Shown piece by piece: positions 11,133 to 36,657 of a DNA stretch of 64,000 nt; the first letter of the stretch is position 1; every line of letters starts with the position of its first letter. The stretch covers positions 4,878 to 68,877 of the forward strand of contig CAYUWD010000004.1 of NCBI GenBank assembly GCA_964448235.1, written 5' to 3'. The DNA comes from an uncultured Bacteroidales bacterium. GTDB lineage: Bacteria > Bacteroidota > Bacteroidia > Bacteroidales > ML635J-15. Under the pieces are notes generated by a model, which saw only the letters and a list, made by a program, of their open reading frames with translations, was not told the origin of the DNA and ran no database searches. A program made the position numbers and the translations under genes.

Positions 11133-11151
11133 AATAAATTTAGCGCAAAAA

Positions 11152-11188: not shown

Positions 11189-11247
11189 TGAAAATTATAA
11201 ATCATTGGGCAGAGTTCAGATTACAATCTCCATAAACATAATAACAA

Positions 11248-11503
11248 TTTAACCCGGATTATTCATGCGGTTAACTTTATGTAGCTGCAAGACGTCCAAC
11301 TCCACCGACATATCTTTATATTTACTCCCTTTGGTCGTGAGCTAAAGGTTCAAGGAGTTAGCAACGAAGCAGATGCATGAAGATAATCGCAAACAATACC
11401 CAGATTTGGGGTTCGTTTATTTTGAGGTATTTAAGCGTATGACATTGTGTAACAATACATTGCAAGCTAATATAATTAGTTGTGGTGAATAATTCGGGTT
11501 AAA
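11248..11503 (+). repeat. 256-bp intergenic element closed by an 18-bp inverted repeat (structured ncRNA or MITE candidate)
   Basis: tttaacccggattattca (11248-11265) pairs with tgaataattcgggttaaa (11486-11503). The single non-Watson-Crick position is G.U on the plus strand and C.A on the minus strand. The interior is visibly more GC-rich than its surroundings. The right arm overlaps the stop codon of the LuxR-type regulator. Confidence 0.4.
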
Positions 11504-12146
11504 CAACTACGAGTTTATTCTTAATAGCTTTAAACATTAAGCTAATTGTATTTTTACAATCAAACTTTGCAAATAGATTCGATTTATGCCCCACAATTGT
11601 TCTTTCGCTAACAAATAAAATATCTGCAATTTCCTTATTACTCAAACCTTCACAAACTAATTGTAATATTTCCTTTTCTCGTTTTGTAAGTTTAATATCT
11701 GTTTTTGTGTCTTTTTCTTCTTGACTAATCTGTCGTGTAAAAAAGTCGAAAAGCTCTTCACTGTAATAATTACCCCTGTTGTACACTGTTTGTATTGCCT
11801 TATTTAAAGTGTCTTTATTAATGTTTTTCATCAAAAAGCCCTTTACTCCTGCATCAATCATACTTTTAATATAATCGTTCTCATTAAACATTGTTAATGC
11901 AATAATTTTAAGGTCAGGATACTTTTCTAGAGCTTTAACTGTAGCATCAATACCATTCATTTCAGGCATTTGTATATCCATAAGTACAATATCCGGTTTA
12001 TTATCAACCAACAAATCCAAAAAATCTTTCCCATTTGAAGCCTCTGCAATAACTTTTACATATTTAATCTTACTTAAAACTAATTTTAACCCCTTTCGAA
12101 ATATTTCATGATCATCAACTAAAATTATTTTTATTCCATTTTCCAT
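11499..12146 (-). CDS. NarL/LuxR-family response regulator (receiver + HTH)
   Basis: The start was moved to MENGIKIILVDDHEIFRKG. Receiver Asp context VLMDIQMPEMNG. C-terminal LuxR HTH LTKREKEILQLVCEGLSNKEIADILFVSERTIVGHKSNLF. Confidence 0.85.
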   Translation of the reverse strand: MENGIKIILVDDHEIFRKGLKLVLSKIKYVKVIAEASNGKDFLDLLVDNKPDIVLMDIQMPEMNGIDATVKALEKYPDLKIIALTMFNENDYIKSMIDAGVKGFLMKNINKDTLNKAIQTVYNRGNYYSEELFDFFTRQISQEEKDTKTDIKLTKREKEILQLVCEGLSNKEIADILFVSERTIVGHKSNLFAKFDCKNTISLMFKAIKNKLVVV

Positions 12147-12212
12147 ATTATACCTTTTATGTATTAAATATAGCCTTCTCAAATATTGTAAATATCATTT
12201 AATAAATTGAGA

Positions 12213-14306
12213 TTATAGTTCTATACTTATATCAATTTTAAAACCCTTACCTATTGCACTTTCAAATTTATATGCCCCATTTATTGATTTTATTCTACTT
12301 ATTATATTTCGCAATCCCATTCCTTTATGTTCTAAAATCATTATTTGATCAATATCAAAACCAATCCCATCATCATCAAAATACATTATCACTTTATCAT
12401 TCGATTCTTCTAGAACAACATTAATATTTTTAGCATTAGCATGTTTTAAAGTATTATTAACTAATTCTGTAATTACTCTAAAAAGAATAAGCTCCATATT
12501 TTCATCTAAACGATTATCAAAATTAATTTTATCAAATCGGATATTAATTTTATTAGTTTTATTAACTTTTTCAAAAAAAGTATCTAAAGCATTTACTAAT
12601 CCATATTTAGAAATCGTCATTGGCATTAGATTATTTGATATTTCACGAATTGTACGGATTGATTCATCAATAATAGAATTAACTTCACCAACATATTCAT
12701 TTCTCTCGTCCAACTGAATAGAAGATGAATTTAATTCATTAACATATAATTTTATGGTAGACAATAAAGGTCCAACACTATCATGCATATCTTTTGCAAA
12801 TCGAGCTCTTTCTCTTTCTTCAGTTCTAATAACAGTACTTAATATTTCCTTTTCTGTTTCTTTTCTTAAAGTAATATTACGTGCAATACTTAAGAAAAGC
12901 TTTTCATTATTATAATCTATTAATCTAGAGATAATTTCAACTGCAATTTTTCTTCCATCCTTTGTTAAATGTTCCGATTCATATGTAAGAAAACCACTTT
13001 CTGATATTTTCTTTCTATTACTTCTTACTTGCATAGCATAAGAAGATGTCTTAATATCTGCAATTTTCATTTTTAGAAATTCTTCCTTTGTATATCCCAA
13101 ATTATTACAACTAGCCTGATTTACTTCGATAATATTTTCATCAATATCTGTAACAAAGATACTATCTCCTGCACTATTAAAAAGTTTACGAAAACGATCC
13201 TGTGATTGTTGTAATTTTTCAGTTGTTGATTGTAGTTGTTTTTTAGAAATATTAAGTTCTTTAAGATAATTATATATTCTATCAGCAGTAAGCAAATACA
13301 AGATTACCAACATCAAAATAATAGAACTAAAAGCAACAATAGATGATGTAAAAATTGTATTTCGAACAAACACTTTGTTTTCAGCCTTAATATCCAAAGT
13401 CGCAACAACAAACAATTCAAAATCTTCAAAATATCGACAAACAGCTAACTTTTCTACATTATTATATCTATAAGTAAATGGTTGTGTAACATTACTCACA
13501 ACAGTATTAAATAATACACTATCTTTCCAATTTTGACCGGCAATCTGGGGATGAACAATAATATTACCATTTTTATCAAAAACAACTGGATAACCAGTTT
13601 TTCCAATTTTTATATCTTCGAGTACAGATCTCAATTTTTTCAAATCTTTTTCCTGATTCCCCACATATAAAATCCCGACAATCTCATCCTTATACCAAAT
13701 AGGCTCGTATGCAGTTATATACCAATCATTTACTACATAAGCCCTTCCATAATAGATCTCTCCATTCTCAATTGCCTGTACTACAAGAGATGAATTTGAG
13801 ATATATGAATTAACAGCCCGACTACCATCAAGATTTAGTACATTTGTTGAAATTCGCACATAACCACTATCAACTTTCTGAAAAATAGTCGCTGTTCCTC
13901 CTAAAAGCGACTTAATACTATCAACAAACACAAAACTCTCGCTCAACAATTCTCCGTCTAGATACCATTCGTAGATATCTTCTTCATATGTTTGATTATT
14001 AACCTGATTTTTAATTTGAATCGGTTTCCTTTTTTTAGTAATATAAAAATCTTTGCCCATAAAATAATTATGTGCGACATTAAGATTTATCTTAACTTTT
14101 TCCAGCTTTAATTGCCTCTCTCTCTCAAACATTTTAGTAATTGTTTCTACTTCGAGAGTAAGGCTATTTTCAAGCTGTTCATTAAAAGTTCTAATAGAGC
14201 TATTTATAAATAATAATGTTACAATAGTTGTTATAATTATTATCAATGCCGCTATAGGTAAAAACAAACGAAGTTTTAATCTAATTCGCGACTCTCTATT
14301 ATTCAT
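12213..14306 (-). CDS. Sensor histidine kinase: extracytoplasmic Cache-like domain, PAS, HisKA_3, HATPase
   Basis: An N-terminal TM helix, a loop of about 280 aa, a second TM helix, a PAS region (FRKLFNSAGDSIFVTDIDENIIEVNQA), the HisKA_3 H-box ERARFAKDMHDSVGPLL, and an ATPase (NTLKHANA...DDGIGF...GMGLRN). Confidence 0.8.
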   Translation of the reverse strand: MNNRESRIRLKLRLFLPIAALIIIITTIVTLLFINSSIRTFNEQLENSLTLEVETITKMFERERQLKLEKVKINLNVAHNYFMGKDFYITKKRKPIQIKNQVNNQTYEEDIYEWYLDGELLSESFVFVDSIKSLLGGTATIFQKVDSGYVRISTNVLNLDGSRAVNSYISNSSLVVQAIENGEIYYGRAYVVNDWYITAYEPIWYKDEIVGILYVGNQEKDLKKLRSVLEDIKIGKTGYPVVFDKNGNIIVHPQIAGQNWKDSVLFNTVVSNVTQPFTYRYNNVEKLAVCRYFEDFELFVVATLDIKAENKVFVRNTIFTSSIVAFSSIILMLVILYLLTADRIYNYLKELNISKKQLQSTTEKLQQSQDRFRKLFNSAGDSIFVTDIDENIIEVNQASCNNLGYTKEEFLKMKIADIKTSSYAMQVRSNRKKISESGFLTYESEHLTKDGRKIAVEIISRLIDYNNEKLFLSIARNITLRKETEKEILSTVIRTEERERARFAKDMHDSVGPLLSTIKLYVNELNSSSIQLDERNEYVGEVNSIIDESIRTIREISNNLMPMTISKYGLVNALDTFFEKVNKTNKINIRFDKINFDNRLDENMELILFRVITELVNNTLKHANAKNINVVLEESNDKVIMYFDDDGIGFDIDQIMILEHKGMGLRNIISRIKSINGAYKFESAIGKGFKIDISIEL

Positions 14307-14384
14307 ATCACTACAAAAGTATTTATTGATTACAAATTTAATCTTTTTTAAGGAATAGAAATAAATAATGATGAACTTTTAAAA

Positions 14385-14421
14385 GAAACACGCAGCATAA
14401 AAACCAAATACCACGTGTTTC
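14385..14421 (-). terminator. Weak terminator-like hairpin downstream of hydF
   Basis: 8-bp stem gaaacacg / cgtgtttc with a 21-nt loop. On the minus strand it is followed by TTTTAAAAG, so the U-run is only short. Confidence 0.3.
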
Positions 14422-14448
14422 AATAAAGCTATTATTATATAACGTGAG

Positions 14449-15651
14449 CTATATACAATTAAAAATCTCTGTGACTCGTTTAAGAATCCCGTTTACTTTT
14501 GCAATAGTAAGTCCATAATTAGTAATTGGAATATTTTTACTTGTAAAATAATCAATTCTACTTTGGATCTGTTTAGCTGTTGCAACACAACCACCGCACT
14601 GAATCACTAAAGCATATTTATCCACAGTTTTAGGTATATTATCTACACCTGAACTAAATTCAAAAAAGAGTTTTTTTCCTGTATATTCTTGTAACCATTT
14701 TGGAATCTTATACCTGCCAATATCTTCGCAACTAATTTGATGAGTACATGATTCAAGAATTAATATATTGTCATTTTCTTTTAATGAATCAATTTTTTTT
14801 GTCCCTTCTATATATTTATTGATATCTCCTTTTAAGCGTGCAAACAAAATACTAAAACTAGTTAAAGCCCAATCTTTAGGTATATTTTGTTCTACATAAT
14901 CAAAAACCTGACTGTCAGTTACAGTTAAATCAGGTTTTATACCTAGTTTTAAAAAGTCACAAAGTTCTGTTTCTTTTACAGACATAAAAATACAATTTTT
15001 ATCTAGAATATCTCTCCAAGCCATAACTTGTGGTAAAATCATCCTACCCTCCGGAGCTTCAGAGTCTATTGGATTTACAAGTAACACTATATCCTTTGGC
15101 TTAATAATATCAGCAAATAGAGATGGTTTAACAAATGAACTTTCAGGTATTTTAGTTTTAATCGCCTCAATAATTTCTTCTCTATTTACAAAATTAACAG
15201 ATGAAAATTCCAAAACCTTTTCACTAGTCTCTTTTTTTATATCATTTATAGTATTTTCCTTAATAGAAGCAATATCAGATTTATTGTGTATAATAATATA
15301 AGGAATAGAAAACTCATTAAATTGTTTTATTTGATTTATCTCTATATCATCAAAAGAATTATCGGCAATCACTAAAACTGCCAAATCTATATTTTTAATT
15401 ACATTATTAGTTTTCTCAATTCGTTTTATCCCTAACACTCCTTCATCATCAATTCCTGCTGTATCAATCAATATTACAGGACCTATGCCAAATATCTCTG
15501 TGGTTTTTTTAACTGGATCTGTTGTAGTTCCCGGATAATCAGAAACGATTGCGACATCTTGACCAACTAGAGCATTGATAAATGAACTCTTACCATTATT
15601 CCTTTTGCCAAAAATTCCAATATGTGGTTTTAAATCATTTCCTCTTTTCAT
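14449..15651 (-). CDS. hydF: [FeFe]-hydrogenase maturation GTPase HydF
   Basis: P-loop GKRNNGKSSFINAL, DTAG, NKSD, and a C-terminal cluster-binding CTH...QCGGC pattern. Adjacent to hydG. Confidence 0.85.
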   Translation of the reverse strand: MKRGNDLKPHIGIFGKRNNGKSSFINALVGQDVAIVSDYPGTTTDPVKKTTEIFGIGPVILIDTAGIDDEGVLGIKRIEKTNNVIKNIDLAVLVIADNSFDDIEINQIKQFNEFSIPYIIIHNKSDIASIKENTINDIKKETSEKVLEFSSVNFVNREEIIEAIKTKIPESSFVKPSLFADIIKPKDIVLLVNPIDSEAPEGRMILPQVMAWRDILDKNCIFMSVKETELCDFLKLGIKPDLTVTDSQVFDYVEQNIPKDWALTSFSILFARLKGDINKYIEGTKKIDSLKENDNILILESCTHQISCEDIGRYKIPKWLQEYTGKKLFFEFSSGVDNIPKTVDKYALVIQCGGCVATAKQIQSRIDYFTSKNIPITNYGLTIAKVNGILKRVTEIFNCI

Positions 15652-15666
15652 AATTAAATTAGTTTT

Positions 15667-15853
15667 TTAAAAACACAAAATCCGAACAAAAGAGGGAGAT
15701 AATTTAGAAATAATATTAGGAGTTTTTTTGAGTATAGAAAAACTAAGGAGTTTTTGATATTTATAAAATTGTGCCTAAGCATTGAAATGAATTGATATTT
15801 TTGCACTATAATTATCATGTTTTCTATCTCTGTATCGGATTTTGTGTTTTTAA
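15667..15853. repeat. 187-bp element bounded by 19-bp perfect inverted repeats, in the hydG-hydF spacer
   Basis: ttaaaaacacaaaatccga (15667-15685) is the exact reverse complement of tcggattttgtgtttttaa (15835-15853). Confidence 0.6.
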
Positions 15854-15865
15854 AATGTTTATAAA

Positions 15866-17296
15866 TTAAAAATATAAATCTCTTTCACCATTTTTAATCC
15901 TATCTATTCGAGATTTAATCTCTTTTATGTCTCTGTACTTTTTAATATCTTCAAGATTTTTTTGAATAACTTCCCAGCCTTTTTGCGCTGTTGATTTCGG
16001 AGCATAATCAACAAGATACTCTGATAAAGTTAATATCGCATTTGCAGAACAGAATCTTTTAATAAAACCTGGTACTGAAAACTCCATAAAATGTTCTCCT
16101 GTCCTACCTAAACGATAACATGCAGTACAAAATGATGGCAAATAACCTTCATCTAACAATTCATCAATAACTTCATTTAGTGATCTATTATCATTTATTA
16201 GAAATTGTTCCTTATTCAGATTCTGATTTTTCTTAAATTTCTCTGCATAAGCTCCTATTTCAATTTTTGTTCCAGCATCAACCTGAGAGCAGCCATATTG
16301 TAAAACTTCTTTACGAATTTTTTCCGGTTCTCTGGCAGTTAATATCAAACCTGTATATGGTACAGCCAAACGTAATATTGCTACTATTCTAGTAAATTCT
16401 TCATCATTAACAATATGTTTATATTTTTCATTTTCATCATTTAGTGCTTTCTGAATTCTTGGAAAGGATATGGTATGAGGTCCGACATTATAGCAAGCTT
16501 CAAGATGATTTGTATGACGTACTAATGATAAAACTTCAAATCTCCAATCATCTAATCCAAACAAAGCTCCAATTCCAACATCATCAATACCAGCTTCCAT
16601 TGCTGTATCCAAGGAGGTAAGACGATAATTATAATCAGCCTTTTTACCTGATAGATGATACTCTTTATATGTTTCAGGATGATAAGTCTCCTGAAATATT
16701 TGAAATGTACCAATTCCAGCTTCTTTAACTTTTTTAAATCCATCAAAATCAAAAGGTGCAGCATTAATATTTACTCTTCGAATCTCTCCATTTCCATTCT
16801 TAATACTGTATACATGTTTTACAGTTTCTGCAATATAGTCAGCACTATAATTTTTGTGCTCACCAAATACCAAAATTAATCGTTTTTGACCATTTTGTTC
16901 AAGAGCAATAACATTTTCTTCTAATTCTTCAGGACTAAGCGTTATACGTGTGGCATTAGCATTTGAAGTTCTAAAGCCACAATACTTACAATTATTACTG
17001 CAAAGATTTCCAACATATAAGGGAGCAAACAAAACAATTCGATTACCATAAATTTTTTGCTTTAGCTCTTTAGCACCTTCTTTTATCAATTCGACAAATT
17101 CAGGCTTATCAGCTTGAACAAGCGTTGCAACTTCAGCTAAATTAAGCCTTTCCTTATTAAGAGATTTAGCAATTATTCTTTTTATCTCCTCTTCGGTAAG
17201 TTTTGCATGATTAATAAAGTCCCATATTTCCTCAGAATCTATAAATCTCTGGAGTGGTTTATCTTCTATCTTATATTTCTGTGGTTTAAAAATCAT
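15866..17296 (-). CDS. hydG: [FeFe]-hydrogenase radical-SAM maturase HydG
   Basis: Radical SAM motif CSNNCKYCGF, ThiH-like body, and a C-terminal CxxCx22C motif (SFCTACYRLGRTGEHFMEFSVPGFIKRFC). Confidence 0.85.
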   Translation of the reverse strand: MIFKPQKYKIEDKPLQRFIDSEEIWDFINHAKLTEEEIKRIIAKSLNKERLNLAEVATLVQADKPEFVELIKEGAKELKQKIYGNRIVLFAPLYVGNLCSNNCKYCGFRTSNANATRITLSPEELEENVIALEQNGQKRLILVFGEHKNYSADYIAETVKHVYSIKNGNGEIRRVNINAAPFDFDGFKKVKEAGIGTFQIFQETYHPETYKEYHLSGKKADYNYRLTSLDTAMEAGIDDVGIGALFGLDDWRFEVLSLVRHTNHLEACYNVGPHTISFPRIQKALNDENEKYKHIVNDEEFTRIVAILRLAVPYTGLILTAREPEKIRKEVLQYGCSQVDAGTKIEIGAYAEKFKKNQNLNKEQFLINDNRSLNEVIDELLDEGYLPSFCTACYRLGRTGEHFMEFSVPGFIKRFCSANAILTLSEYLVDYAPKSTAQKGWEVIQKNLEDIKKYRDIKEIKSRIDRIKNGERDLYF

Positions 17297-17317
17297 AGCT
17301 AAATATTTTACAATACA

Positions 17318-18454
17318 TTACTTTGTGTCATTATTAACTATAGGAAGATAAACAATAAATTTACTCCCAACATCAGGTTTACTATCAAGATGTATTCGTC
17401 CATTATTTAATTCAACCATTTTCTTTACAATTGATAAACCTAATCCGCTTCCAGTTACGTTTTTAGTTTTAGCATTTTTTATCCGAACAAATTCCTGAAA
17501 AAGATTTTCTTGTTCATCTATACTCATTCCTATCCCAGTATCTTCTACCGATATTTTTGCATAGCCATCATTTTCTATAATATCGACAAAAACTTCTCCA
17601 TCATCTTTATTGTATTTTACGGCATTAGACACCAAATTGTTTAAAATAATTTCAACTTCTTCTTTATCGGACTTAATCCAACAAGTTTTATTACCAGAAA
17701 TGTTTAATTTTACATGTTTTTGAATTGCGGCAGGCTCCATAGTTGCCATAGCAATTTTTGCAATCTCGACAACATCAACTTTAGATATTTCTCTATTCTT
17801 TTTTCCTGACTCAAGTTTAGTTAAATCCAAAAGATCAAATATCAAAGTACGCATACCTTTAATTCTCTCAATTGAACGATCAATCATAACCTTATAATCA
17901 TCTATAGAATCTCCAACTTGTTTATCCTGCATAATTTTTAGGTAACCTTCAATTGCATTTATAGGAGATTTTAACTCGTGAGAAAGAACAGAAAGAAACT
18001 GAAACCTTATTTCTTTTCCTTCTTTCTTCATTTTACGAGTCATCCTTTGTAAATAAAGACGTTTAGTAATATCTTCAATTGCAGATTTTAATTCCTGAGG
18101 AGTAAATGGTTTTGGAACAAAATTATATGCTCCATTATTAGTTGCTTTAACAGCAAGTTCTAATGATGCATAACTAGTAATCATCATCACTAATGCGTCA
18201 TATTGCTTTTTGTTTATATATTCCAAAACCTCAATCCCATCAATACCAGGCAATTTATTATCAAGTAAGATAATATCAACTTCATTATTTTCAACAATTT
18301 CTATAGCTCTTTCACCTGTTTCTGCTTCAATTAGTTTAAAATCGAAATCATCATTCAAGAAAGGATAACTAACAGTAAAGTTTCTCAAAATGCGTTGAAT
18401 TCCACTACGAATACCTGGTTCATCATCAACAATTAAAATCTTTAAAGTTTCCAT
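17318..18454 (-). CDS. Hybrid receiver-histidine kinase (N-terminal REC, HisKA, HATPase)
   Basis: REC region ILIVDDEPGIRSG...IILLDNKLPGIDG. H-box LSVLSHELKSPINAIEGY. ATPase boxes NLVSNAVKYN, DTGIGM, GSGLGLSIV. Confidence 0.85.
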   Translation of the reverse strand: METLKILIVDDEPGIRSGIQRILRNFTVSYPFLNDDFDFKLIEAETGERAIEIVENNEVDIILLDNKLPGIDGIEVLEYINKKQYDALVMMITSYASLELAVKATNNGAYNFVPKPFTPQELKSAIEDITKRLYLQRMTRKMKKEGKEIRFQFLSVLSHELKSPINAIEGYLKIMQDKQVGDSIDDYKVMIDRSIERIKGMRTLIFDLLDLTKLESGKKNREISKVDVVEIAKIAMATMEPAAIQKHVKLNISGNKTCWIKSDKEEVEIILNNLVSNAVKYNKDDGEVFVDIIENDGYAKISVEDTGIGMSIDEQENLFQEFVRIKNAKTKNVTGSGLGLSIVKKMVELNNGRIHLDSKPDVGSKFIVYLPIVNNDTK

Positions 18455-18456
18455 AA

Positions 18457-18855
18457 CTATACTTTTAAAAGTTTGTTTATTTCTCTATGTAATTGATCTG
18501 ATCTTATTCCTTTTTCAAGATAAAGATCTGCTTTTATCCATTTCCGTTCATCATCAGTATCAAGAGAAAACACCATTCCAGTATCAGCAGTTACAGCAGT
18601 AGCAAGAATAATAGGAACATCCGGATATTTATTCTTCATTTTATAACTAAGAATAAAACCACTATCTTTATTTTCCATCATTAAATCAACAATTGCTAAA
18701 TCTGGTTTTGTGTTTTCAATTATCTCTTCCCCTTCTTTTTGTCCATCTGCAATAATAGTATTAAATCCAAAACTCTCAACCTGAATTTTCAACTGATTTG
18801 CGTAATCTACATCATCATCTACAATTAAAATTGTCTTGTTCATCTTGTCTTTCAT
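18457..18855 (-). CDS. Stand-alone response-regulator receiver protein (CheY-like)
   Basis: 132 aa. ILIVDDDVDYANQL...LAIVDLMMEN...LEKG, with no output domain. Confidence 0.85.
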   Translation of the reverse strand: MKDKMNKTILIVDDDVDYANQLKIQVESFGFNTIIADGQKEGEEIIENTKPDLAIVDLMMENKDSGFILSYKMKNKYPDVPIILATAVTADTGMVFSLDTDDERKWIKADLYLEKGIRSDQLHREINKLLKV

Positions 18856-18885
18856 AATTATATATTTTTAAATTTATTCATTACA

Positions 18886-20865
18886 TTAATTCTTTGGAAT
18901 ATCAATAATAAAAGAGGTACCTGTAGGCCCATTTTCAGCTTTATCATTTGTAACAATATCTATTTTCCCATTATGCATTTTAACAATCCCATATACAAGT
19001 GGCAATCCCAAACCAGTTCCTTTACCCATTTCTTTAGTTGTAAAGAATGGAGTAAATAATTTTTCCATATTTTCTTTAGGGATACCCACACCAGTATCAG
19101 AAATAGTAATTTTAACTTTATCTTCAGTTTCCGATAATTTAACACCTAATATACCTCCTTTAGGCATAGCTTCAATAGCATTTTTTTCAAGATTTATAAG
19201 TACCTGCATCATCTGATCCTGATCAATCATTACAAAATAATCTGAAATTTCTAATTTAAGGTCGAGACTTATCTCTTCGGGTATTATAAGAGCTTCAAAA
19301 CTATGTTTAATAAAATCTCTAATATCTGTTTTTTGCTTTTTCACATTGTTCTTTCTGGCAAAATTCAATAAACCACCCACAATTTTTTTACATCTTGCTG
19401 TTTGTTCAACAATTAATTCCAAATCTTCATACATTGGGTCATTTTTTGCTACCTCCTCTTTGAGTATATTACTATACATTGTAATAACACCCAACGGATT
19501 ATTGATTTCATGTGCAATCCCAGCCGAAAGTTGTCCCATATTTGCCAGTTTTTCTGACTGTTTTAATGCTTGTCTTGCATCTGCCAAACTTTCATTTGAC
19601 TGATTCAATTCCTGTATAGATTTATGCAATTTCTCAATTGTGTATGGTAAACACATCTCAATTTCTGCCAATCCCTGTATTATAGCAATTGCATGCTCTC
19701 TACAGGTCGCATATCCACAAGCACCACAATCTAAATAATCAGATTTATCATGTTTACCCATATTTCTCAACACAGCTAAAATTTCTTTTTCGTCAGGTTG
19801 CACAACTCTTCTATCAAGAGGCTTAAAGGATTGTGATAAATCAATATTTTTAAATTCTTCAAATTCTTTTGACCATGCTTCATGATCAAAATCTCTGAAT
19901 TTTTGTTGAACATAATCCCTAATTTTAGTACGCTTAAGATATCTGTCATTTTTTTCAGTCATACCAGGTCCCATGATGCAACCTTTACAGCATAATAATT
20001 CCATATATTTACAATTAAGCTTACCATTCTCAAATTCAGAGATTATTTCTTTAAAATTATTTTGCCCTGAAGCATTAATAATTTCTCCCTCCATTATATT
20101 ATCAGTTTTGTTTATTGTTTGCAATAAACCTCTTGACACTGCAAGAACAGACCCTTTCCCTGCCTCAGGAGAATCAAACCTCATCATTTTACTATTTTCA
20201 GGCTTTATATTATACCTAGCAAATAGCTCTCTTAATTCTTTATATGTAATTACTTCGTCAACTTCATCAGATTCTGCTTTTTTGGCAATACAAGGTCCAA
20301 TAAATACAACTTTTACATCATTACCATATTTCTTTTTAACAACTCGACTTGTAGCTACCATCGGCGAAACTATAGGAGCAAGATTTTTAACTAAATAGGG
20401 ATGATAATGTTCAACATAAAAAACAATTGATGGACAATCAGATGATAAATAACTTACCCCATTATCATTTTCAATAAGTTCTTTATATTTTGGTGCTATT
20501 AAATCTGCTCCAAATCCTACTTCGACAACTTTTGCAAATCCTAATTTCTTAATCATACCAACCAAGTATTGGTAATCAGGAATTTCTGTAAATTCTGCAG
20601 GAAAACTAGGTGCAATAATAGCAATTACTTTATTTTCGGAACTTAGTAATTTTTCTGTGGCAGAGCTGCAATCAAGGAACACTTTTGCCCCCTGACTGCA
20701 GACTCTAACACAATTACCACAGCCTATACATTTCTCATTTATTATTTCAGCTTGGCCATTAATTATTCGAATAGCTTTGACTGGACACTCTCTCACACAA
20801 GTATAGCAAACACGACACTTATCCTTTACTGTAATTACTAAACTATTTCTTTTTATATGTCCCAT
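18886..20865 (-). CDS. Sensory [FeFe]-hydrogenase-like domain fused to a histidine kinase (candidate H2-sensing kinase)
   Basis: Two ferredoxin motifs (CRVCYTCVRECP and CIGCGNCVRVC). H-cluster-like motifs SSDCPS, GPCIAKKAE and CCKGCIMGPG. A Cx2Cx4Cx16C motif (CGACGYATCREHAIAIIQGLAEIEMC). A coiled coil, the H-box AHEINNPLG, and ATPase boxes NLEKNAIEAM, DTGVGI, GTGLGL. Confidence 0.8.
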   Translation of the reverse strand: MGHIKRNSLVITVKDKCRVCYTCVRECPVKAIRIINGQAEIINEKCIGCGNCVRVCSQGAKVFLDCSSATEKLLSSENKVIAIIAPSFPAEFTEIPDYQYLVGMIKKLGFAKVVEVGFGADLIAPKYKELIENDNGVSYLSSDCPSIVFYVEHYHPYLVKNLAPIVSPMVATSRVVKKKYGNDVKVVFIGPCIAKKAESDEVDEVITYKELRELFARYNIKPENSKMMRFDSPEAGKGSVLAVSRGLLQTINKTDNIMEGEIINASGQNNFKEIISEFENGKLNCKYMELLCCKGCIMGPGMTEKNDRYLKRTKIRDYVQQKFRDFDHEAWSKEFEEFKNIDLSQSFKPLDRRVVQPDEKEILAVLRNMGKHDKSDYLDCGACGYATCREHAIAIIQGLAEIEMCLPYTIEKLHKSIQELNQSNESLADARQALKQSEKLANMGQLSAGIAHEINNPLGVITMYSNILKEEVAKNDPMYEDLELIVEQTARCKKIVGGLLNFARKNNVKKQKTDIRDFIKHSFEALIIPEEISLDLKLEISDYFVMIDQDQMMQVLINLEKNAIEAMPKGGILGVKLSETEDKVKITISDTGVGIPKENMEKLFTPFFTTKEMGKGTGLGLPLVYGIVKMHNGKIDIVTNDKAENGPTGTSFIIDIPKN

Positions 20866-20896
20866 AATTAAATGTCCAACTTAATTTCAATTATAT

Positions 20897-22621
20897 TTAT
20901 TTCAACACCTTTCTTTGACAATACTCGGTATGCAATAAATCATGACTAACATGACTTAAAGGTTCACCTAAAAACTCTTTATATAATTCAATAATTTCCG
21001 GATTTGAGTGAGATGTTTTCACTTCCTCAGTTTTATCAATATTATATAGTAATTGCATTCTTGCCTTTAGTTGTTCTTCAGTAGTCCCAATATGCTGACC
21101 ACCACCATTAATACAACCTCCAGGGCAAGCCATTATTTCTATAAAATGGATATCTTTTCGCCCTTCACGTATTTCATCTAATAAGATACTCGCATTTTTT
21201 AATCCATTAACCACAGCAATTCCAAGTTCTAAATCACCAATTTTAACTTTTGTTTCTTTACGACCTTCAAGTCCTCTGATTTCATCTATTGTATAATTCT
21301 TCAGTTCTTCACCTGTAAGTTTAAAATATGCAGTACGTATAGCTGCCTCAGTCACACCACCACTTACACCAAACAATTTTCCTGCAGAACTTCTAAAACC
21401 ATGAGGAGAATCAGCTGCTTCGGGTTCAATATTATGAACATCCACCCCCATTGTTTTAACAAACTGACTAAATTCACGTGTAGTTAATACTGCATCTACG
21501 TCAGAATATCCATTTTTAGTCATTTCTTCTCTTTGAGCTTCGAATTTTTTTGCAGTACAAGGCATAATAGAAACCGAGTAAATATTTTCCGGTTTCACAT
21601 TACTAATTTTAGCCCAATATGATTTAATAACAGATCCTAACATTTGTTGTGGAGACTTACAAGAAGAAATATGCGGAAGCATATCAGGATAAAACTCTTC
21701 TGCAAATTTTATCCATGCAGGACAACAACTTGTCATCATAGGTAAAACTCCATTATTTGTAACCCTATGGATAAGTTCGGCAGACTCTTCCATAATAGTT
21801 AAATCGGCAGAGAATGAAGTATCAAAAACATAGTCAAATCCAATTTTACGAAGAGCAGTATTCATAATTCCATTTGCATCTGTTCCTGCTTTCATATTAA
21901 ACTCTTCAGCTAAAGATACAGATATTGCAGGAGCATATTGCACAACTACTACTTTTTTAGGATCATTTAGTGCTAACTGAATCTCACCAAAGTGATTTTT
22001 CTCACTTAAAGCACCTGTAGGGCAAACAACAACACACTGTCCACAATTTACACAACTTGAAGTATTTAAACCTTTATTAAAAGCTGTACCAATGACAGAT
22101 TTACTTCCCCTATTTATAATATCAATAGCAGAAACACCCATCATTTCTTCACAAACTCTCACACATCTTTCACACAAAATACACTTATTAGGATCCCGCA
22201 CAATACTAGGGCTAGAACGATCCATGTGATAATCATTTTTTATTCCAATGATTCTTCTTTCTCTTACATTTAAGTCTTCTGCTAACTTTTGTAATTCACA
22301 ATTCCCATTTCTAGAACAATACAAACAATCATCCGGATGATTTGAAAGCAATAATTCTACAATAGTTTTTCGTGCTTCGATAACACGAGGAGAATGAGAT
22401 TTAATTTTCATCCCATCTTCAACTGGTTGTGAACACGAAGGTATAAGACGACCAGTTTTTTCATTTTCCACAACACAGATTCGACATGCTCCCGTTGGAA
22501 AAGAATCCTTTAAATGACAAAGCGTTGGGACTTTTATCCCATTCCTTGTTAATGCGTCAAGAACAGTTTCACCTTTAACTGCTTCAACCTTTTTATTATT
22601 TATTTCAATGTAAATACTCAT
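20897..22621 (-). CDS. hydA: [FeFe]-hydrogenase catalytic subunit HydA (multi-FeS, NuoG-like N-terminus)
   Basis: Canonical H-cluster motifs TSCCPAW, MPCTAKKFE and EIMACPGGCINGGG. N-terminal 2Fe-2S and 4Fe-4S Cys motifs. The ATG at 22621 (MSIYIEINNKKV) is preferred over the TTG at 22630 used by the track. Confidence 0.9.
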   Translation of the reverse strand: MSIYIEINNKKVEAVKGETVLDALTRNGIKVPTLCHLKDSFPTGACRICVVENEKTGRLIPSCSQPVEDGMKIKSHSPRVIEARKTIVELLLSNHPDDCLYCSRNGNCELQKLAEDLNVRERRIIGIKNDYHMDRSSPSIVRDPNKCILCERCVRVCEEMMGVSAIDIINRGSKSVIGTAFNKGLNTSSCVNCGQCVVVCPTGALSEKNHFGEIQLALNDPKKVVVVQYAPAISVSLAEEFNMKAGTDANGIMNTALRKIGFDYVFDTSFSADLTIMEESAELIHRVTNNGVLPMMTSCCPAWIKFAEEFYPDMLPHISSCKSPQQMLGSVIKSYWAKISNVKPENIYSVSIMPCTAKKFEAQREEMTKNGYSDVDAVLTTREFSQFVKTMGVDVHNIEPEAADSPHGFRSSAGKLFGVSGGVTEAAIRTAYFKLTGEELKNYTIDEIRGLEGRKETKVKIGDLELGIAVVNGLKNASILLDEIREGRKDIHFIEIMACPGGCINGGGQHIGTTEEQLKARMQLLYNIDKTEEVKTSHSNPEIIELYKEFLGEPLSHVSHDLLHTEYCQRKVLK

Positions 22622-22638
22622 GATAATCAAATTAAATA

Positions 22639-24588
22639 TTAGACAATTTCAATTGCATTAAATTTACAAGCCTCAGCGCAAGTCCCACATCCGATACACT
22701 TATCTTCAACAATAAAATGAGGAGTTTTCTTTGCACCAATAATTGCACCTGTTGGACATTTCTTCGCACAAACAGTACAGCCTGTACATGCATCCACATT
22801 AATTTTAAATACTCTCAAATTAGTACAAACACCAGCAGGACATTTTTTATCATATATATGCGCATCATACTCATCTTTAAAATATCGCAAAGTACTCAAT
22901 ACAGGATTTGGAGCTGACTGTCCTAATCCACAAAGAGATGTTTCTTTTATTACTTTTGCTAATTTTTCTAGCTGTATTACACTTTTAAATCTATCTAAAG
23001 CTTCGTTTCCTTTTGGATTTGTAGGTTTAGATGTAATACTTTCAAGAATTTCAAGCATTCTTTTTGTTCCTTCACGACAAGGTATGCATTTACCACAAGA
23101 TTCTCTTTGTATAAAATCCATAAAGAACTTAGCAACATCAACCATACATGTATCTTCATCCATTACAACCATGCCACCAGATCCCATCATAGCTCCCACT
23201 TCTAATAATGAATCATAATCTATAGGAATATCTAAGTTTTGTTTAGTAATACACCCTCCTGATGGTCCACCAATTTGTACTGCTTTAAATTCTTTACCAT
23301 TTGGAATTCCTCCGGCAATATCAAAAAGGACTTCACGAATTTTGGTTCCAATAGGAATTTCAACTAATCCAGTCAAACTTATTTTTCCAGACAAAGCAAA
23401 TACTTTTGTCCCTTTGCTTTTTTCTGTACCAATAGTTATAAATTCATCTTTCCCCATTTCCATAATACCAGGGATATTTGATAATGTTTCTACATTATTT
23501 ATCACAGTTGGTTTTCCAAAAAGGCCACTTGTTGTTGGAAATGGAGGTCGAGGTCTTGGCATTCCTCTTTTACCCTCAATACTATGAATAAGAGCTGTTT
23601 CTTCTCCACAAACAAAAGCCCCTGCACCCATTTTAACTTTAATATTAAAATCAATACCAGTATTAAAAATATTCTCACCCAACAAACCATACTCTTCAGC
23701 TTGTTTTATAGCAATTTTTAATCTATCAATTGCCAAAGGATATTCGGCTCGAATATATACATATGCCTTGGTTGCTTCGATAGCATATGCTGCAATTACC
23801 ATTCCTTCAATTAACCTATGAGGGTCTCCTTCAATAACAGCTCTATCCATAAACGCTCCAGGATCACCTTCGTCAGCATTACAAATTAAATATTTTTGAT
23901 CACTTTTTTCTTTATTTGCAAATTTCCATTTCATTCCTGTCGGAAAACCTCCACCACCACGACCACGTAAACCAGAATCTAAAATAATCTGACAAACTTC
24001 TTCACTTTTATAATTCCCAATAACTTTAATGATATTTTTATAGCCTCCCCTTGCAATATACTCATTAATACTAACCGGATCAACAACTCCACAATTCTTA
24101 AGAACAATTCTTTTTTGCTTCACAAAAAATGGATGTTCATTAATATCTCTTATCCCTTCCCATTCTTTACTATTTTGATTCTTAAATTGACCTAAAATAT
24201 CTTTTTCAGGTAATTTAAAATTAAATACATCATCTAATAAAGTATCAACTTTATCTTCTGTAACATGTTCAAAAGAAATTCTGTTATAACCAGGCAATTG
24301 CACATCTAATATTGGTTCTGATGAACATAAACCAATACAGCCTGTCTTTATAATTCGCCCATTAATGTTGTGATCTTTTAGATATGTTTCAACTTTCTCA
24401 AATGTTTTACCAGCCCCTGCTCCTAAACCGCAAGTACCTGTTCCAACATATAAAATAGGTTCATCTGTTAATACATTTTTATAACGAGATATTTTATCAA
24501 TCAATTGATCATCTTTTGAATTTGATGAATAATCTCTCAAAACCTCATCTACAAAAAATTCCTTTTCTATATTTGTACTTTTTTCCAT
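22639..24588 (-). CDS. hydB: NuoF-like flavoprotein subunit HydB of the hydrogenase
   Basis: FMN/NADH site GRGGGGFPTGMKW, N3 cluster ESCGKCIPCREG, N-terminal thioredoxin-like 2Fe-2S region, and a C-terminal 2x[4Fe-4S] region (CTGCTVCAKKCP and CIGCGTCAEAC). Confidence 0.9.
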   Translation of the reverse strand: MEKSTNIEKEFFVDEVLRDYSSNSKDDQLIDKISRYKNVLTDEPILYVGTGTCGLGAGAGKTFEKVETYLKDHNINGRIIKTGCIGLCSSEPILDVQLPGYNRISFEHVTEDKVDTLLDDVFNFKLPEKDILGQFKNQNSKEWEGIRDINEHPFFVKQKRIVLKNCGVVDPVSINEYIARGGYKNIIKVIGNYKSEEVCQIILDSGLRGRGGGGFPTGMKWKFANKEKSDQKYLICNADEGDPGAFMDRAVIEGDPHRLIEGMVIAAYAIEATKAYVYIRAEYPLAIDRLKIAIKQAEEYGLLGENIFNTGIDFNIKVKMGAGAFVCGEETALIHSIEGKRGMPRPRPPFPTTSGLFGKPTVINNVETLSNIPGIMEMGKDEFITIGTEKSKGTKVFALSGKISLTGLVEIPIGTKIREVLFDIAGGIPNGKEFKAVQIGGPSGGCITKQNLDIPIDYDSLLEVGAMMGSGGMVVMDEDTCMVDVAKFFMDFIQRESCGKCIPCREGTKRMLEILESITSKPTNPKGNEALDRFKSVIQLEKLAKVIKETSLCGLGQSAPNPVLSTLRYFKDEYDAHIYDKKCPAGVCTNLRVFKINVDACTGCTVCAKKCPTGAIIGAKKTPHFIVEDKCIGCGTCAEACKFNAIEIV

Positions 24589-24590
24589 AA

Positions 24591-25055
24591 TTAATCGGCT
24601 TTATTTCTATAGTTTTCTACAATACCCTTAATTGATTCCTTTGTTACTTTAGCATGAAAGTTCCCATTTACACATATTACAGGAGCCAACCCGCATGCTC
24701 CAATACAAGCTACAACTTCTATACTAAACATCTTGTCTTTTGTTGTATCTCCAGCTTTTATTTCCAATATTTTCTCCAACTCCTCCAACACTGTTGCAGA
24801 CCCTAAAACATGACATGCTGTTCCTCTACAAACCTGTATGTGATATTTACCCTGAGGCTTAAATCTAAATTGATTGTAGAAGGTTGCTACTCCATAAATT
24901 TTACTTGTGGGCATATTTAAATATTCGCCTACTTCTACAATCAATTCCTCTGATAAATACCCATTAGCTTCTTGCACATCCTGTAAAATTGGAATCAGAT
25001 TATCCTGACTAGCTGTTGGATACTTTGAAAAAACATCTTTTACTTTTGCTTCCAT
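24591..25055 (-). CDS. hydC: NuoE-like [2Fe-2S] subunit HydC of the hydrogenase
   Basis: CRGTACHVLG...CIGACGLAPV pattern and a size of 154 aa. Confidence 0.9.
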   Translation of the reverse strand: MEAKVKDVFSKYPTASQDNLIPILQDVQEANGYLSEELIVEVGEYLNMPTSKIYGVATFYNQFRFKPQGKYHIQVCRGTACHVLGSATVLEELEKILEIKAGDTTKDKMFSIEVVACIGACGLAPVICVNGNFHAKVTKESIKGIVENYRNKAD

Positions 25056-25076
25056 AATTATTATTTATTTTTTTAT

Positions 25077-25107
25077 AAGTAAGTAGCAGATAAACTGCTA
25101 CTTACTT
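25077..25107 (-). promoter_or_regulatory. 13-bp perfect hairpin between the leading receiver gene and hydC
   Basis: aagtaagtagcag (25077-25089) / ctgctacttactt (25095-25107) with a 5-nt loop. On the transcribed minus strand no U-run follows, so it is not a canonical terminator. Confidence 0.45.
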
Positions 25108-25114
25108 AATAATA

Positions 25115-25612
25115 TTATTTTAATAACCTTTTAACTTCTGGTAATAGCTTATCAGCACTTGTAGGTTTTGCTAAGAAACCACCTACAGGAAATAATATTG
25201 ATTTACCATCTTGAGTTCTATAATCAATTGCTGCTGTCCCATCTGTAATGTTTTTCACAAGTAGTACTTGTAAATCTTTATAATTCGGATCTTTTCTAAA
25301 CTCTCTTGCCATATCCACCACTGATGCTTTTGTTGTAGTTAATACATCTATAGAAGTTTGCATTAAAAATGGAATATCCTTTAAATCAGGATTGTTATAC
25401 ATTTCATTTGCAAGTTCAAATCCCTCATAATGAGTAGTCATCATTACATCCAAAATAGCTAGATTTGGCTTTTCGTTTCTTAATAATTCAATACCTTCTT
25501 CTTTACTTGATGCTGAAATCACTTCGTAGCCCTCTTTTGTTAAGATAGCATTAACAACGTTTATTACATCAATGTCGTCGTCTACGATTAAAATTTTCTT
25601 TGTTGTTTCCAT
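25115..25612 (-). CDS. Stand-alone receiver protein with an atypically long beta4-beta5 region
   Basis: ILIVDDDIDVINV...LAILDVMM...LMQTS...FLAKP. About 60 residues separate the conserved Ser/Thr position from the Lys-Pro, far more than in ordinary receivers. There is no output domain. Confidence 0.75.
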   Translation of the reverse strand: METTKKILIVDDDIDVINVVNAILTKEGYEVISASSKEEGIELLRNEKPNLAILDVMMTTHYEGFELANEMYNNPDLKDIPFLMQTSIDVLTTTKASVVDMAREFRKDPNYKDLQVLLVKNITDGTAAIDYRTQDGKSILFPVGGFLAKPTSADKLLPEVKRLLK

Positions 25613-26118
25613 AACTCATAATTTTTTATTGTTAGTAATTGTGTTTAATAATCTTTTAAAGAACCTTGATATTGTAAAGGTAATTCAACACAACAATTAA
25701 AAACAGGTAGGGTTTTCCCTTTTTAATACGATAAAATCAAGAAGGAATACTCACAAAAACCAGTAAAAAAAGGAAGGGTTTTAATAGTAAAATATTACTA
25801 TACAAAAACACAAACAAATCATAACAACCTAGGATAGTGACTTTTAAGAAATAAATAAACAAATATTATATTACATATTATTTTACCGTTATTTAATTAA
25901 CAGTAGATTCCTAAAAATTATCAAAAAAGAAAATTTATGCTTTTTTAAACTTGAATTAATTATATCTATTTCTTCCAGACAAACGCTTTTAGCTTTGAAA
26001 TAAATTCGGAATTTACTCTTTGTGTAGTAAATGCTATTGTCTATTTTGCAACTCAAAATATTTAATAAAATATCTATTTATCAATAATTATTGTACAGTA
26101 TTACCCACTAAACCAATT

Positions 26119-26838
26119 CTAGATATCATAAAACTTACAATTTTCATACTTACATTCCTTATTATCTAAATTAAAATTGCATACAAAATCACGCATTAGT
26201 ATAGTAGTGTTTAGATATTTTTTCATGAAGTTAACAGCAGTTTCAATTGCAATAAAAGTATTTCTTTTACAACATCTTGGTCCACCTGCATTTGCAATAT
26301 TATTAAGTGTTTCTGAAGTAATTTTATTTGCTAAAGAATATTCTTTTTCAGAAACAGGTGTAGCATTTAAAATGATACTCATAAAAATCCCATTTCCTAT
26401 TCCTGCTCCACAAGCTCCATAAAACCCACAAAAACCTCCTAAAACATTTGCTGCCCTCTTTCTGGCTTTTTTTAAAGCTCCTTTTAGTTTTTCTGATTGT
26501 CCATTTAGAGAATAAATAGTTGTCAACAATACCGCAGGCACAAGAAAATGATGCTCTGGGCCATGCATATTAATTGATTTATGCCTTAATATTTGTGAAA
26601 TAATTTCGAAAGGAGATTCCAATTTAGTATTTAAACAAAATTGTTCGATAAAATCATATGCATTCATTTGATGACATTGATCACAGATAAAATGACCATT
26701 CACACAATTAGCATTAGAATCATACTTATTACCACAAACACTACAAATCATTTCGTTAGAATTTGTATAATACTTTAAATCCTCACCACATATTAAACAA
26801 CCAAAGTTTGACATACTTTTTATTGTAAAATTATTCAA
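26119..26838 (-). CDS. Cys-rich protein: N-terminal zinc-ribbon-like CxxC pairs plus a GCAxxG-type motif
   Basis: CLICGEDL...CSVCGNKY...CVNGHFICDQCHQ, then GGFCGFYGACGAGIGNG and further Cys residues (GPRCC, C..N.DNKEC.YENC). No radical-SAM CxxxCxxC motif. Confidence 0.5.
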   Translation of the reverse strand: MNNFTIKSMSNFGCLICGEDLKYYTNSNEMICSVCGNKYDSNANCVNGHFICDQCHQMNAYDFIEQFCLNTKLESPFEIISQILRHKSINMHGPEHHFLVPAVLLTTIYSLNGQSEKLKGALKKARKRAANVLGGFCGFYGACGAGIGNGIFMSIILNATPVSEKEYSLANKITSETLNNIANAGGPRCCKRNTFIAIETAVNFMKKYLNTTILMRDFVCNFNLDNKECKYENCKFYDI

Positions 26839-26883
26839 TTTATTAAATGAGATTTATTTATTTATCCAATTTTATACAAAATA

Positions 26884-27582
26884 CTATTCTTTTATTAACC
26901 TTACTTCTGTTCTACGATTTTTTGCTTTCCCTTCTGGAGTAGTATTATCTGTAACTGGTTGTGTTTCACCATAACCCTTTGCTTGAATTCTAGTTGATTT
27001 TATTCCTTTTTTTATCAAATAATTTCTTACCGTTTCTGCTCTTCTTTGAGACAAATCAAGATTATCTTCATCTGAACCAACATTATCTGTATGACCAGAT
27101 ATTTCGACAATTGTAGTTTTCTTTAAACTCAAATATTCAAATAACTCATCAAGTTCCTTATAGGATTCTTGTTTAAGGCTAGCTTTTCCTGTATCAAAAT
27201 ACACATTATCCAAAGTAAAAAGTTTAGGCATCTCTATTTGTATATCAATATTAAAAGATAAGCCGATTTGATTTGGTTTTAAGGCAGGTATCTCAAATTC
27301 AGTATAGTATTTTTCCTCATTAAATCCTTTAATTTTAATAACATAGTTTTGATTATATGGTAATTCAACAGAAAATTCACCATTATCATTACTAACTGCC
27401 ATAAAAATTTTCTTCGAATTAGAATTCTCAAAGATTATTGTTTCTCCTATTTTAATATTATTATTAAAATCTGTAACCTTACCATCAATACGTGCTTTTG
27501 TATTAGAATTATTATCCTGAGCATAATTATTTATTATCCCCAATACCATAATAAATCCAATAATAGAGAAAAAGAATTTCAT
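26884..27582 (-). CDS. OmpA-family protein with an N-terminal carboxypeptidase-regulatory-like domain
   Basis: Signal peptide. OmpA C-terminal motif ISGHTDNVGSDEDNLDLSQRRAETV...GYGETQPV...NRRTEV. Confidence 0.85.
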   Translation of the reverse strand: MKFFFSIIGFIMVLGIINNYAQDNNSNTKARIDGKVTDFNNNIKIGETIIFENSNSKKIFMAVSNDNGEFSVELPYNQNYVIKIKGFNEEKYYTEFEIPALKPNQIGLSFNIDIQIEMPKLFTLDNVYFDTGKASLKQESYKELDELFEYLSLKKTTIVEISGHTDNVGSDEDNLDLSQRRAETVRNYLIKKGIKSTRIQAKGYGETQPVTDNTTPEGKAKNRRTEVRLIKE

Positions 27583-36656: not shown

Positions 36657-36657
36657 A

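Follow-up and report, generated by a model that had tools for sequence, protein, structure and literature searches.

The window analysed here, a 64,000-nucleotide stretch of contig CAYUWD010000004.1 from an uncultured Bacteroidales bacterium, carries on its minus strand a compact group of genes for a HydABC-type [FeFe]-hydrogenase, two maturases and several signalling proteins (Table 1). Directly after hydA lies an open reading frame (ORF) for a protein of 659 amino acids (aa), called the sensor below, in which a hydrogenase-like input module is joined to a histidine kinase. An earlier sequence-only reading of this DNA had proposed that it was a one-protein H2 sensor kinase. The evidence described below supports that interpretation, with H2 sensing itself remaining a prediction from sequence, and we put the probability that the protein is a soluble cytoplasmic histidine kinase with a non-catalytic, sensory input of the group C [FeFe]-hydrogenase type at roughly 0.6.

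Domain architecture of the sensor and its linker

The ATG start of the sensor ORF is backed by homologues of 658-662 aa that align from residue 1. Pfam searches found all of the parts that the sequence-only reading had listed, namely two 4Fe-4S motifs, a shortened H-domain, HisKA and a complete HATPase, and the short motifs it had quoted were each in place (SSDCPS at residue 141, GPCIAKKAE at 190, CCKGCIMGPG at 292 and AHEINNPLG at 451). The N-terminal pair of Fer4 motifs provides Cys 17, 20, 23 and 27 and Cys 46, 49, 52 and 56. They are followed by a match to Fe_hyd_lg_C at residues 79-300 (E 9e-48) that covers profile positions 2-245 of 245, although at 222 residues the domain is shorter than the 285 residues of the adjoining HydA. 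C380, C383, C388 and C405 form an exact Cx2Cx4Cx16C motif; this motif has been described for the M2e and M2f enzymes (PMC8163306), which bears out the earlier statement that it marks sensory, HydS-type hydrogenases. A helical linker, residues 406-443, then runs from C405 to the first helix of the dimerisation and histidine phosphotransfer (DHp) domain.

The kinase part has the features expected of a class I (HisKA-type) histidine kinase: the H-box with its phospho-acceptor His452 (codon 19510-19512), the N box (N558/N562), the G1 box (D590-x-G-x-G594), the F box (FTPFFTTK) and the G2 box (G614-x-G-x-G618), the four HATPase_c boxes all being invariant. Its best match in the PDB was ZraS (9jfj, E 1e-34). 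Pfam detected no PAS family in the 659-aa protein at E <= 0.01, and an AlphaFold2 (AF2) model of the monomer, with a mean predicted local distance difference test score (pLDDT) of 78, contained no beta strand and so no PAS-like fold between residues 300 and 510, only helices and loops. Both results agree with the earlier statement that no PAS domain lies between the hydrogenase and kinase parts. The same Pfam search and model also ruled out a hidden PAS or another sensor domain within the linker region (residues 300-450), which would have offered another explanation of the linker.

The helices modelled after the H-domain span residues 308-324, 328-338, 359-368, 388-396 and 406-433, followed by the two DHp helices (443-471 and 477-505). 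Helix 406-433 starts directly after C405, the last Cys of the C-terminal cluster, and leads into the DHp helices, with hydrophobic residues at a spacing of three to four (I410, L413, I417, L420, N424, L427 and L434). In the sensor C405 and His452 are 47 residues apart. Among representative clusters, 37 of the 46 kinase fusions were likewise direct, and the spacing between the last cluster Cys and the phospho-acceptor His was 47 (n=15), 40 (n=4), 54 (n=4), 33 (n=2) or 68 (n=1), such that 26 of 31 distances fell in a heptad register and five did not. Even when the mode was excluded 11 of 16 remained in register, with a binomial P of ~1e-6 that is indicative only, the clusters being interrelated. 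Heptad-periodic lengths of this kind are the pattern that, judged from sequence, indicates a continuous and rigid coiled-coil transmitter, and this periodicity speaks for a mechanical coupling between the C-terminal cluster domain and the kinase.

Residues of the putative H-cluster site

Residue equivalences were taken from a pairwise alignment of the sensor to the HydA of the window and from HMMER alignments to solved structures. The three signature motifs read S142-D143-C144-P145 (P1), G190-P191-C192-I-A-K195 (P2) and C293-K-G-C296 (P3). In the numbering of CpI, the P1 ligand C144 corresponds to C300, the P2 ligand C192 to C355 and K195 to K358, and in P3 C293 corresponds to C499 and C296, the bridging Cys, to C503. 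In an alignment of 50 sequences of the nearest family (59-82% identity; the clade below), C144, C192, C293, C296, K195, A85-P86-S87, S167-P168 and E198 were invariant in 50/50 members, as were the eight N-terminal and four C-terminal cluster Cys and H452. To cover the wider superfamily, residues 1-420 were searched exhaustively against 1.84 billion cluster representatives, which yielded 5,405 clusters at E <= 1e-3, of which 990 reached E <= 1e-30; conservation was counted in the best 147 representative clusters after clustering at 50% identity. Each of the four H-cluster ligand Cys was kept in at least 145 of these 147 (>=98%; 145 for C144, 146 for C192), and K195 in 126. The earlier claim that all four ligands can be read in the sensor therefore stands, and a missing H-cluster Cys ligand was ruled out by motif positions, alignments and conservation alike. 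At P3 it is C293 that is the invariant Cys; its neighbour C292 is ~98% conserved within the clade and is not conserved outside it. The P3 spacing, CxxC, is one residue below the CxxxC of group A, with both Cys invariant, and the same short spacing was present in 34 of the 37 direct kinase fusions. PAS-type HydS-like relatives of ~550-600 aa had the CxxxC spacing in 52 cases.

Structural comparison gave the same family assignment. In Foldseek searches, ~430-450 residues of the AF2 model matched CbA5H, the HydA subunit of HydABC, DdH and CpI (E 1e-20 to 1e-15), while the C-terminal part matched the ZraS kinase core, and the PDB sequence matches of the N-terminal part were also true [FeFe]-hydrogenases. 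Profiles and Foldseek thus place the N-terminal part with the true [FeFe]-hydrogenases. A plain ferredoxin or other non-hydrogenase fold was considered and ruled out by the Foldseek and PDB sequence matches.

The position of the proton-relay residue Cys299 of CpI is occupied by Asp143, which is invariant in the Bacteroidales clade (50/50) but was found in only one of the 147 superfamily representatives, where the commonest residues were Ala (45), Pro (23), Thr (20), Ser (18) and Cys (17). The top-scoring CpI entry in the PDB search was 6glz, an engineered C299D variant. In that variant the carboxylate hydrogen-bonds the amine of the azadithiolate (adt) ligand and 30-80% of the H2-release activity is retained (PMC6226526); the sensory enzymes TmHydS and TamHydS both have Ala at this position (PMC10407848). 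The remainder of the group A proton pathway is not retained in the sensor, with E279 replaced by K126, S319 by A163 and R286 deleted, although at the E279-equivalent position Glu is present in 27 of the 50 relatives. Met353 is replaced by Gly190, invariant in the clade and Gly in 138/147 representatives; this exchange is a trait of group C, and Ser or Thr at this position of group D (PMC8163306). The NCBIfam models of group A hydrogenases scored the sensor at no more than 95 bits, against cutoffs of more than 400.

Of the residues that mark a catalytic group A enzyme (C299, E279, S319, E282, R286, M353 and M497), C299, E279, S319, R286 and M353 are thus replaced or deleted in the sensor. From group C (M2f/HydS) it has the two N-terminal [4Fe-4S] motifs with Cx2Cx4Cx16C and the Met353 to Gly exchange, and what is missing is the PAS domain after the C-terminal cluster. 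The fused kinase and the Gly at position 190 set it apart from group D (M2e).

The operon, its distribution and other uses of the module

All genes of the cluster are on the minus strand, and from the 165-aa receiver gene through hydG they are separated by 2-59 nt, the gaps on either side of the sensor gene being 31 nt (from hydA) and 30 nt (to the 132-aa receiver gene). The sequence-only reading had placed the sensor between hydA and the maturases. It does adjoin hydA, but the genes for a receiver and a receiver-kinase separate it from those for HydG and HydF. HydA scored 821 bits against the NCBIfam model FeFe_hydrog_A6 (cutoff 765) and carries TSCCPAW, MPCTAKKFE and MACPGGCINGGG, as had been quoted for the paralogue next door. 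The acceptor Asp residues of the three receivers (55, 57 and 65) and the H-box His159 of the second kinase are, as read from the sequence, intact.

Table 1. Genes of the hydrogenase locus and domains of the sensor (positions in the window; residue numbers are those of the sensor)
Feature	Position	Strand	Basis
REC, stand-alone receiver, 165 aa, acceptor Asp55, first gene	25115..25612	(-)	Response_reg
HydC, NuoE-like 2Fe-2S subunit	24591..25055	(-)	2Fe-2S_thioredx, E 1e-52
HydB, NuoF-like flavoprotein subunit	22639..24588	(-)	Complex1_51K, NADH_4Fe-4S, Fer4
HydA, catalytic [FeFe]-hydrogenase subunit, HydABC-type (bifurcating-type)	20897..22630	(-)	NCBIfam FeFe_hydrog_A6
Sensor histidine kinase with hydrogenase-like input module, 659 aa	18886..20865	(-)	ORF, Pfam, homologues
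Two ferredoxin-type [4Fe-4S] motifs, residues 12-60	20686..20832	(-)	Fer4 families
Shortened [FeFe]-hydrogenase H-domain, residues 79-300	19966..20631	(-)	Fe_hyd_lg_C, alignments to HydA/CpI, conservation, Foldseek
C-terminal accessory cluster domain, Cx2Cx4Cx16C, residues 378-407	19645..19734	(-)	PF04060 'FeS', E 6e-10
Helical, coiled-coil-like transmitter linker, residues 406-443	19537..19650	(-)	AF2 helices, hydrophobic spacing, heptad-periodic lengths
HisKA/DHp, residues 443-506	19348..19539	(-)	HisKA, E 9e-13; H452 invariant
HATPase_c, residues 548-658	18892..19224	(-)	Pfam; boxes invariant
Single-domain response regulator REC132, 132 aa, acceptor Asp57	18457..18855	(-)	Response_reg
REC-HisKA-HATPase_c hybrid kinase, 378 aa, Asp65, His159	17318..18454	(-)	Pfam
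HydG, H-cluster radical-SAM maturase	15866..17296	(-)	TIGR03955, 502 bits, cutoff 312
HydF, H-cluster maturation GTPase/scaffold, after 214-nt gap	14449..15651	(-)	TIGR03918, 485 bits, cutoff 326
Cache-PAS-HisKA_3 kinase (Cache_3-Cache_2)	12213..14306	(-)	Pfam
LuxR/GerE response regulator	11499..12182	(-)	Pfam

The arrangement is widespread. At least 7,951 homologues of the 659-aa sensor were found, and relatives were present in at least 595 genomes (one genome per GTDB species), nearly all from Bacteroidales or from metagenome-assembled genomes of Bacteroidota; the closest relative among the matches listed was 78% identical. Database annotations of these homologues read 'histidine kinase' or 'iron only hydrogenase large subunit-like protein / signal transduction histidine kinase'. 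For synteny 80 loci were retrieved, and the denominators that follow are the loci with enough flanking sequence. NuoE-NuoF-HydA lay upstream of the sensor gene in 67/67 loci, with HydA directly upstream in 64/67, and the receiver and receiver-kinase genes lay downstream in 71/72; HydG was downstream in 35/60 and a stand-alone receiver preceded NuoE in 36/67. The common gene order is REC, NuoE, NuoF, HydA, sensor kinase, REC, REC-kinase, HydG, HydF. The sensor locus is thus a conserved operon and not a chance fusion. A one-off fusion or an assembly artefact was ruled out by the thousands of full-length homologues together with the conserved synteny.

A second, divergently transcribed sensor paralogue (~616-636 aa, 37-43% identity) lies upstream of NuoE in 29/67 related genomes (for example loci L006, L024, L025, L034, L036 and L047, at locus coordinates of ~1,000-6,000 on the minus strand), with no copy in the window. 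In many copies the C499-equivalent Cys is replaced by Asn or Asp ('HFNIFYNEGC') and an H-box is missing at the aligned position; the paralogue has the look of a second sensor that is degenerate or wired differently.

Beyond the operon core, the LuxR/GerE regulator adjoins the operon in 25/67 related loci and the Cache-PAS-HisKA_3 kinase in 11/67; it is possible that this separate pair provides a transcriptional (DNA-binding) output or a second input. HydE was not found within the 64-kb window, where the sole match was a cross-match to HydG, and in some relatives (loci L045 and L078) a HydE-like radical-SAM gene follows HydF. A scan of the operon for promoters and terminators gave counts equal to the shuffled expectation, the sigma-70 consensus being unsuited to Bacteroidota, and an Rfam scan of positions 11000-27000 gave no matches. 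A gene for a DUF5714 protein (26119-26838, minus strand) is separated from the first gene of the operon by 506 nt; its product scored 148 bits against the NCBIfam model 'metal-binding double selenoprotein MbdU', far under the cutoff of 600, and no such gene was seen beside the operon in related loci. Features at 30506-31933 (minus strand) and 35382-37614 (plus strand) include dnaA, ~10 kb from the operon, and PorP/SprF type IX secretion genes and a CHU_C-domain protein, which confirm a Bacteroidota host. A very large ORF at 101-6022 (plus strand; 1,973 aa, GTG start) lies at the left window edge. The GC content is ~30% throughout.

The sensor module is not confined to kinases. Among 146 representative clusters in which Pfam found the Fer4 pair, the H-domain and the FeS domain together, the module was fused to HisKA/HATPase_c in 43, to a sigma-54 activator AAA+ domain with HTH_8 in 15, to PAS in at least 46 and to GGDEF with HD-GYP in at least one (P0194). 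Because it is fused to so many classical output domains, the module would appear to be a portable signalling input, a sensor and not an enzyme, for which the comparative evidence is strong. The sigma-54 and GGDEF fusions lie among proteins P0121-P0270; no discussion of either was found in the literature covered, and these sigma-54 and GGDEF + HD-GYP proteins would be one-protein devices leading from H2 to transcription or from H2 to cyclic di-GMP.

Known sensory systems and the proposed H2 signalling pathway

The 2016 HydDB classification contains a class '[FeFe] Group C1, histidine kinase-linked (putative)' (Sondergaard et al. 2016, PMC5037454), and the sensor fits it as a new member of a predicted class. 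The association with a histidine kinase that characterises C1 is found here within the same chain (HisKA and HATPase_c), with a further kinase encoded two genes downstream. The sensor shares with C1 the H-domain with accessory clusters, a location near a bifurcating-type group A hydrogenase, a Bacteroidales host and a predicted role in H2 sensing, and a C1 gene has been noted near hndABCD in the Bacteroidales isolate Petrimonas mucosa (ING2E5A_0849; PMC7768429). In several published C1 cases, however (Vallitalea, Cloacimonadota), the kinase is a separate adjoining gene, whereas in the sensor everything is in one chain and without PAS. The C1 and C3 labels map poorly onto domain content (PMC11406978), and group C is still called 'fused with a PAS domain' in recent literature (PMC11216029). 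In the literature to April 2026, TmHydS and TamHydS were the sole characterised sensory [FeFe] enzymes discussed, and full-text searches turned up no biochemical work on any kinase-fused protein of this kind, in agreement with the earlier remark that kinase-linked sensory hydrogenases had been predicted with none characterised.

TmHydS of Thermotoga maritima (group C, M2f) resembles the sensor in its two N-terminal [4Fe-4S] motifs, H-domain and C-terminal Cx2Cx4Cx16C, in the Met353 to Gly exchange and in a group A proton pathway that is not conserved. It differs in that it ends in a PAS domain, has no kinase and has Ala at position 299 (A131); its length class (~570 aa) retains the CxxxC form of P3, whereas the sensor has CxxC, Asp143 and a direct coiled-coil link to HisKA. 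TamHydS of Thermoanaerobacter mathranii (group D, M2e) also lacks PAS and has the C-terminal Cx2Cx4Cx16C, and its gene adjoins that of a trimeric group A hydrogenase with a kinase-like ATPase gene nearby. It has no fused output, Ser at the Met353 position, Ala137 at position 299 and its own proton route through E252 and E289, in contrast to Gly190, Asp143 and the fused kinase of the sensor. A similar logic operates in the HoxBC/HoxJ system of Cupriavidus necator, where a low-activity hydrogenase serves as an H2 sensor and drives a two-component system that controls hydrogenase genes. HoxBC/HoxJ belongs to HydDB [NiFe] group 2b, 'histidine kinase-linked', and differs in its [NiFe] site, its unrelated fold and the division of sensor and kinase between separate proteins, HoxJ having a PAS-like domain; in the sensor an [FeFe]-type site and the kinase share one chain. 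The closest parallels to the linker are the engineered LOV kinase YF1 (4gcz) and FixL, in which a cofactor-binding input is joined to the DHp by a continuous helical linker; 4gcz and FixL chimeras were among the PDB matches of the kinase part. In YF1 the length of the linker works in heptad steps. The input of YF1 and FixL is a PAS/LOV domain, whereas the helix of the sensor emerges from a [4Fe-4S] domain, directly at its final Cys ligand.

Taken together, these data suggest that the sensor is probably an H-cluster-based H2 sensor, in which the signal would pass through the C-terminal cluster domain and the coiled coil to His452 and from there to the receivers. In this scheme HydG and HydF, encoded in the same cluster, and HydE, encoded elsewhere, would install the [2Fe] subcluster on the [4Fe-4S] site held by C144, C192, C293 and C296. 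H2 would bind and be split at the H-cluster, with Asp143 replacing the proton-relay Cys299 beside the bridgehead amine. The resulting redox or protonation change of the H-cluster and N-terminal clusters would alter the conformation of the Cx2Cx4Cx16C domain, and this would be passed through the continuous, register-sensitive helix 406-443 to the DHp domain and change the autophosphorylation of His452. Phosphate would then move to the 132-aa receiver and the receiver of the 378-aa kinase, and possibly to the 165-aa receiver, a multi-step relay that would tune the expression or activity of HydABC and the maturases to the H2 level. The sequences themselves show the domain architecture, the conserved ligands, the lack of a PAS domain, the heptad-periodic linker lengths and the conserved operon. 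From these we infer that [2Fe] is incorporated and that H2 is the signal, and likewise in which direction the kinase is regulated, which proteins exchange phosphate with it and which targets it controls.

Several points weigh against this proposal. The CxxC P3 loop is shorter than in every structurally characterised H-cluster site, and the geometry of [2Fe] binding in it is therefore unproven. One study could hardly detect P1-P3 motifs in its own set of Group C1 sequences (PMC11406978), an observation for which the CxxC spacing may account; kinase-fused members are known from their sequences alone, and their cofactor content cannot be read from these. The coiled coil is deduced from the sequence pattern and the periodicity of linker lengths and is not seen in the AF2 monomer, in which confidence is low (pLDDT <50) across residues 420-453, which is no surprise when a coiled coil that forms between two chains is modelled with only one. 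The favoured idea for such sensors has been that they signal by redox changes of the C-terminal cluster, but this is contradicted for TamHydS, where that cluster is not reduced by H2 and its disruption barely alters activity (PMC13104023); by analogy a simple redox relay through the C-terminal cluster would be unlikely. Finally, the conserved operon core encodes no DNA-binding output, and for this reason the regulated target is a guess.

The same evidence bears on other explanations, the most serious of which is that the sensor responds to redox state, to iron-sulfur status or to O2 or CO and not to H2: it would then carry a [4Fe-4S] cluster only, or read the ferredoxin/NADH state that drives HydABC, so that the kinase reports reductant load. 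The shortened P3 and the loss of most of the group A proton pathway fit this idea, three accessory clusters could equilibrate with ferredoxin, a Nar1-like [4Fe-4S]-only state is compatible with the sequence, and H-cluster binding in Group C1 has been questioned (PMC11406978). Moreover, the retention of the divergent paralogue that lacks the C499-equivalent Cys means that this scaffold can be maintained even when its H-cluster site is incomplete. However, the four Cys and the K358, APS, SP and E361 equivalents are invariant, which is hard to explain for a plain [4Fe-4S] protein, and an equally invariant Asp stands exactly where the proton-relay residue faces the adt amine. The gene also lies between hydABC and hydGF in dozens of species, and the relatives TmHydS and TamHydS bind a functional H-cluster. 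We therefore regard a sensor of this kind as unlikely.

Less probable again is that the protein is a regulatory subunit docked on HydABC, with the clusters of both wired together, which would report turnover or redox state and not free H2. The strict adjacency of the gene to hydA (a 31-nt gap here, and adjacent in 64/67 loci) would suit such a subunit, and group C3 proteins have been treated as a 'T' subunit of some BfuABC-type complexes (PMC11406978); but the same module occurs with many outputs and in many contexts, and dimerisation through the DHp would be awkward within a HydABC assembly. Docking is compatible with H2 sensing, and the two are not mutually exclusive. That the protein is mainly a catalytic hydrogenase, with a kinase that is incidental or regulates the enzyme itself, is very improbable. 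CpI does keep substantial turnover with an Asp at position 299, but the sensor lacks the other proton-pathway residues and Met353, all of its histidine kinase catalytic boxes are invariant with receivers downstream in 71/72 loci, the adjoining genes encode a genuine catalytic HydABC, and those group C and D enzymes that have been characterised are slow (PMC8163306).

If the H2-sensor reading is followed, a further and more tentative proposal is that, among [FeFe] H2 sensors, the kinase-fused proteins of Bacteroidales may be a subclass of their own, without PAS and with a distinct mechanism. It would combine a natural Asp as a working local proton acceptor for the H-cluster, in place of the Ala of TmHydS and TamHydS, with a [2Fe] pocket reshaped by CxxC, mechanical transmission through a coiled coil and a relay that branches to two receivers and another kinase. 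The architecture itself is very common and the class has been predicted since 2016. Databases contain thousands of proteins built almost identically, so the window gene is useful as a good representative and an entry point for experiments, is no discovery in itself and will not surprise specialists. Three features were not in the literature covered and are new here: Asp143, which is specific to the clade, the CxxC form of the P3 loop, and the heptad-locked linker, all of them concrete, testable handles.

The two sensory [FeFe]-hydrogenases studied so far, TmHydS and TamHydS, have no measurable output. With sensor and kinase in one polypeptide, H2-dependent phosphorylation and phosphotransfer would be an easy biochemical read-out, and the PAS-less subclass, if it is real, would offer the simplest setting for working out how sensory [FeFe]-hydrogenases pass on their signal. 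Members of the family are plentiful in anaerobic Bacteroidales that live in digesters, sediments and guts. Because the partial pressure of H2 controls the balance of fermentation in these habitats, the family probably governs when the bifurcating hydrogenases are made.

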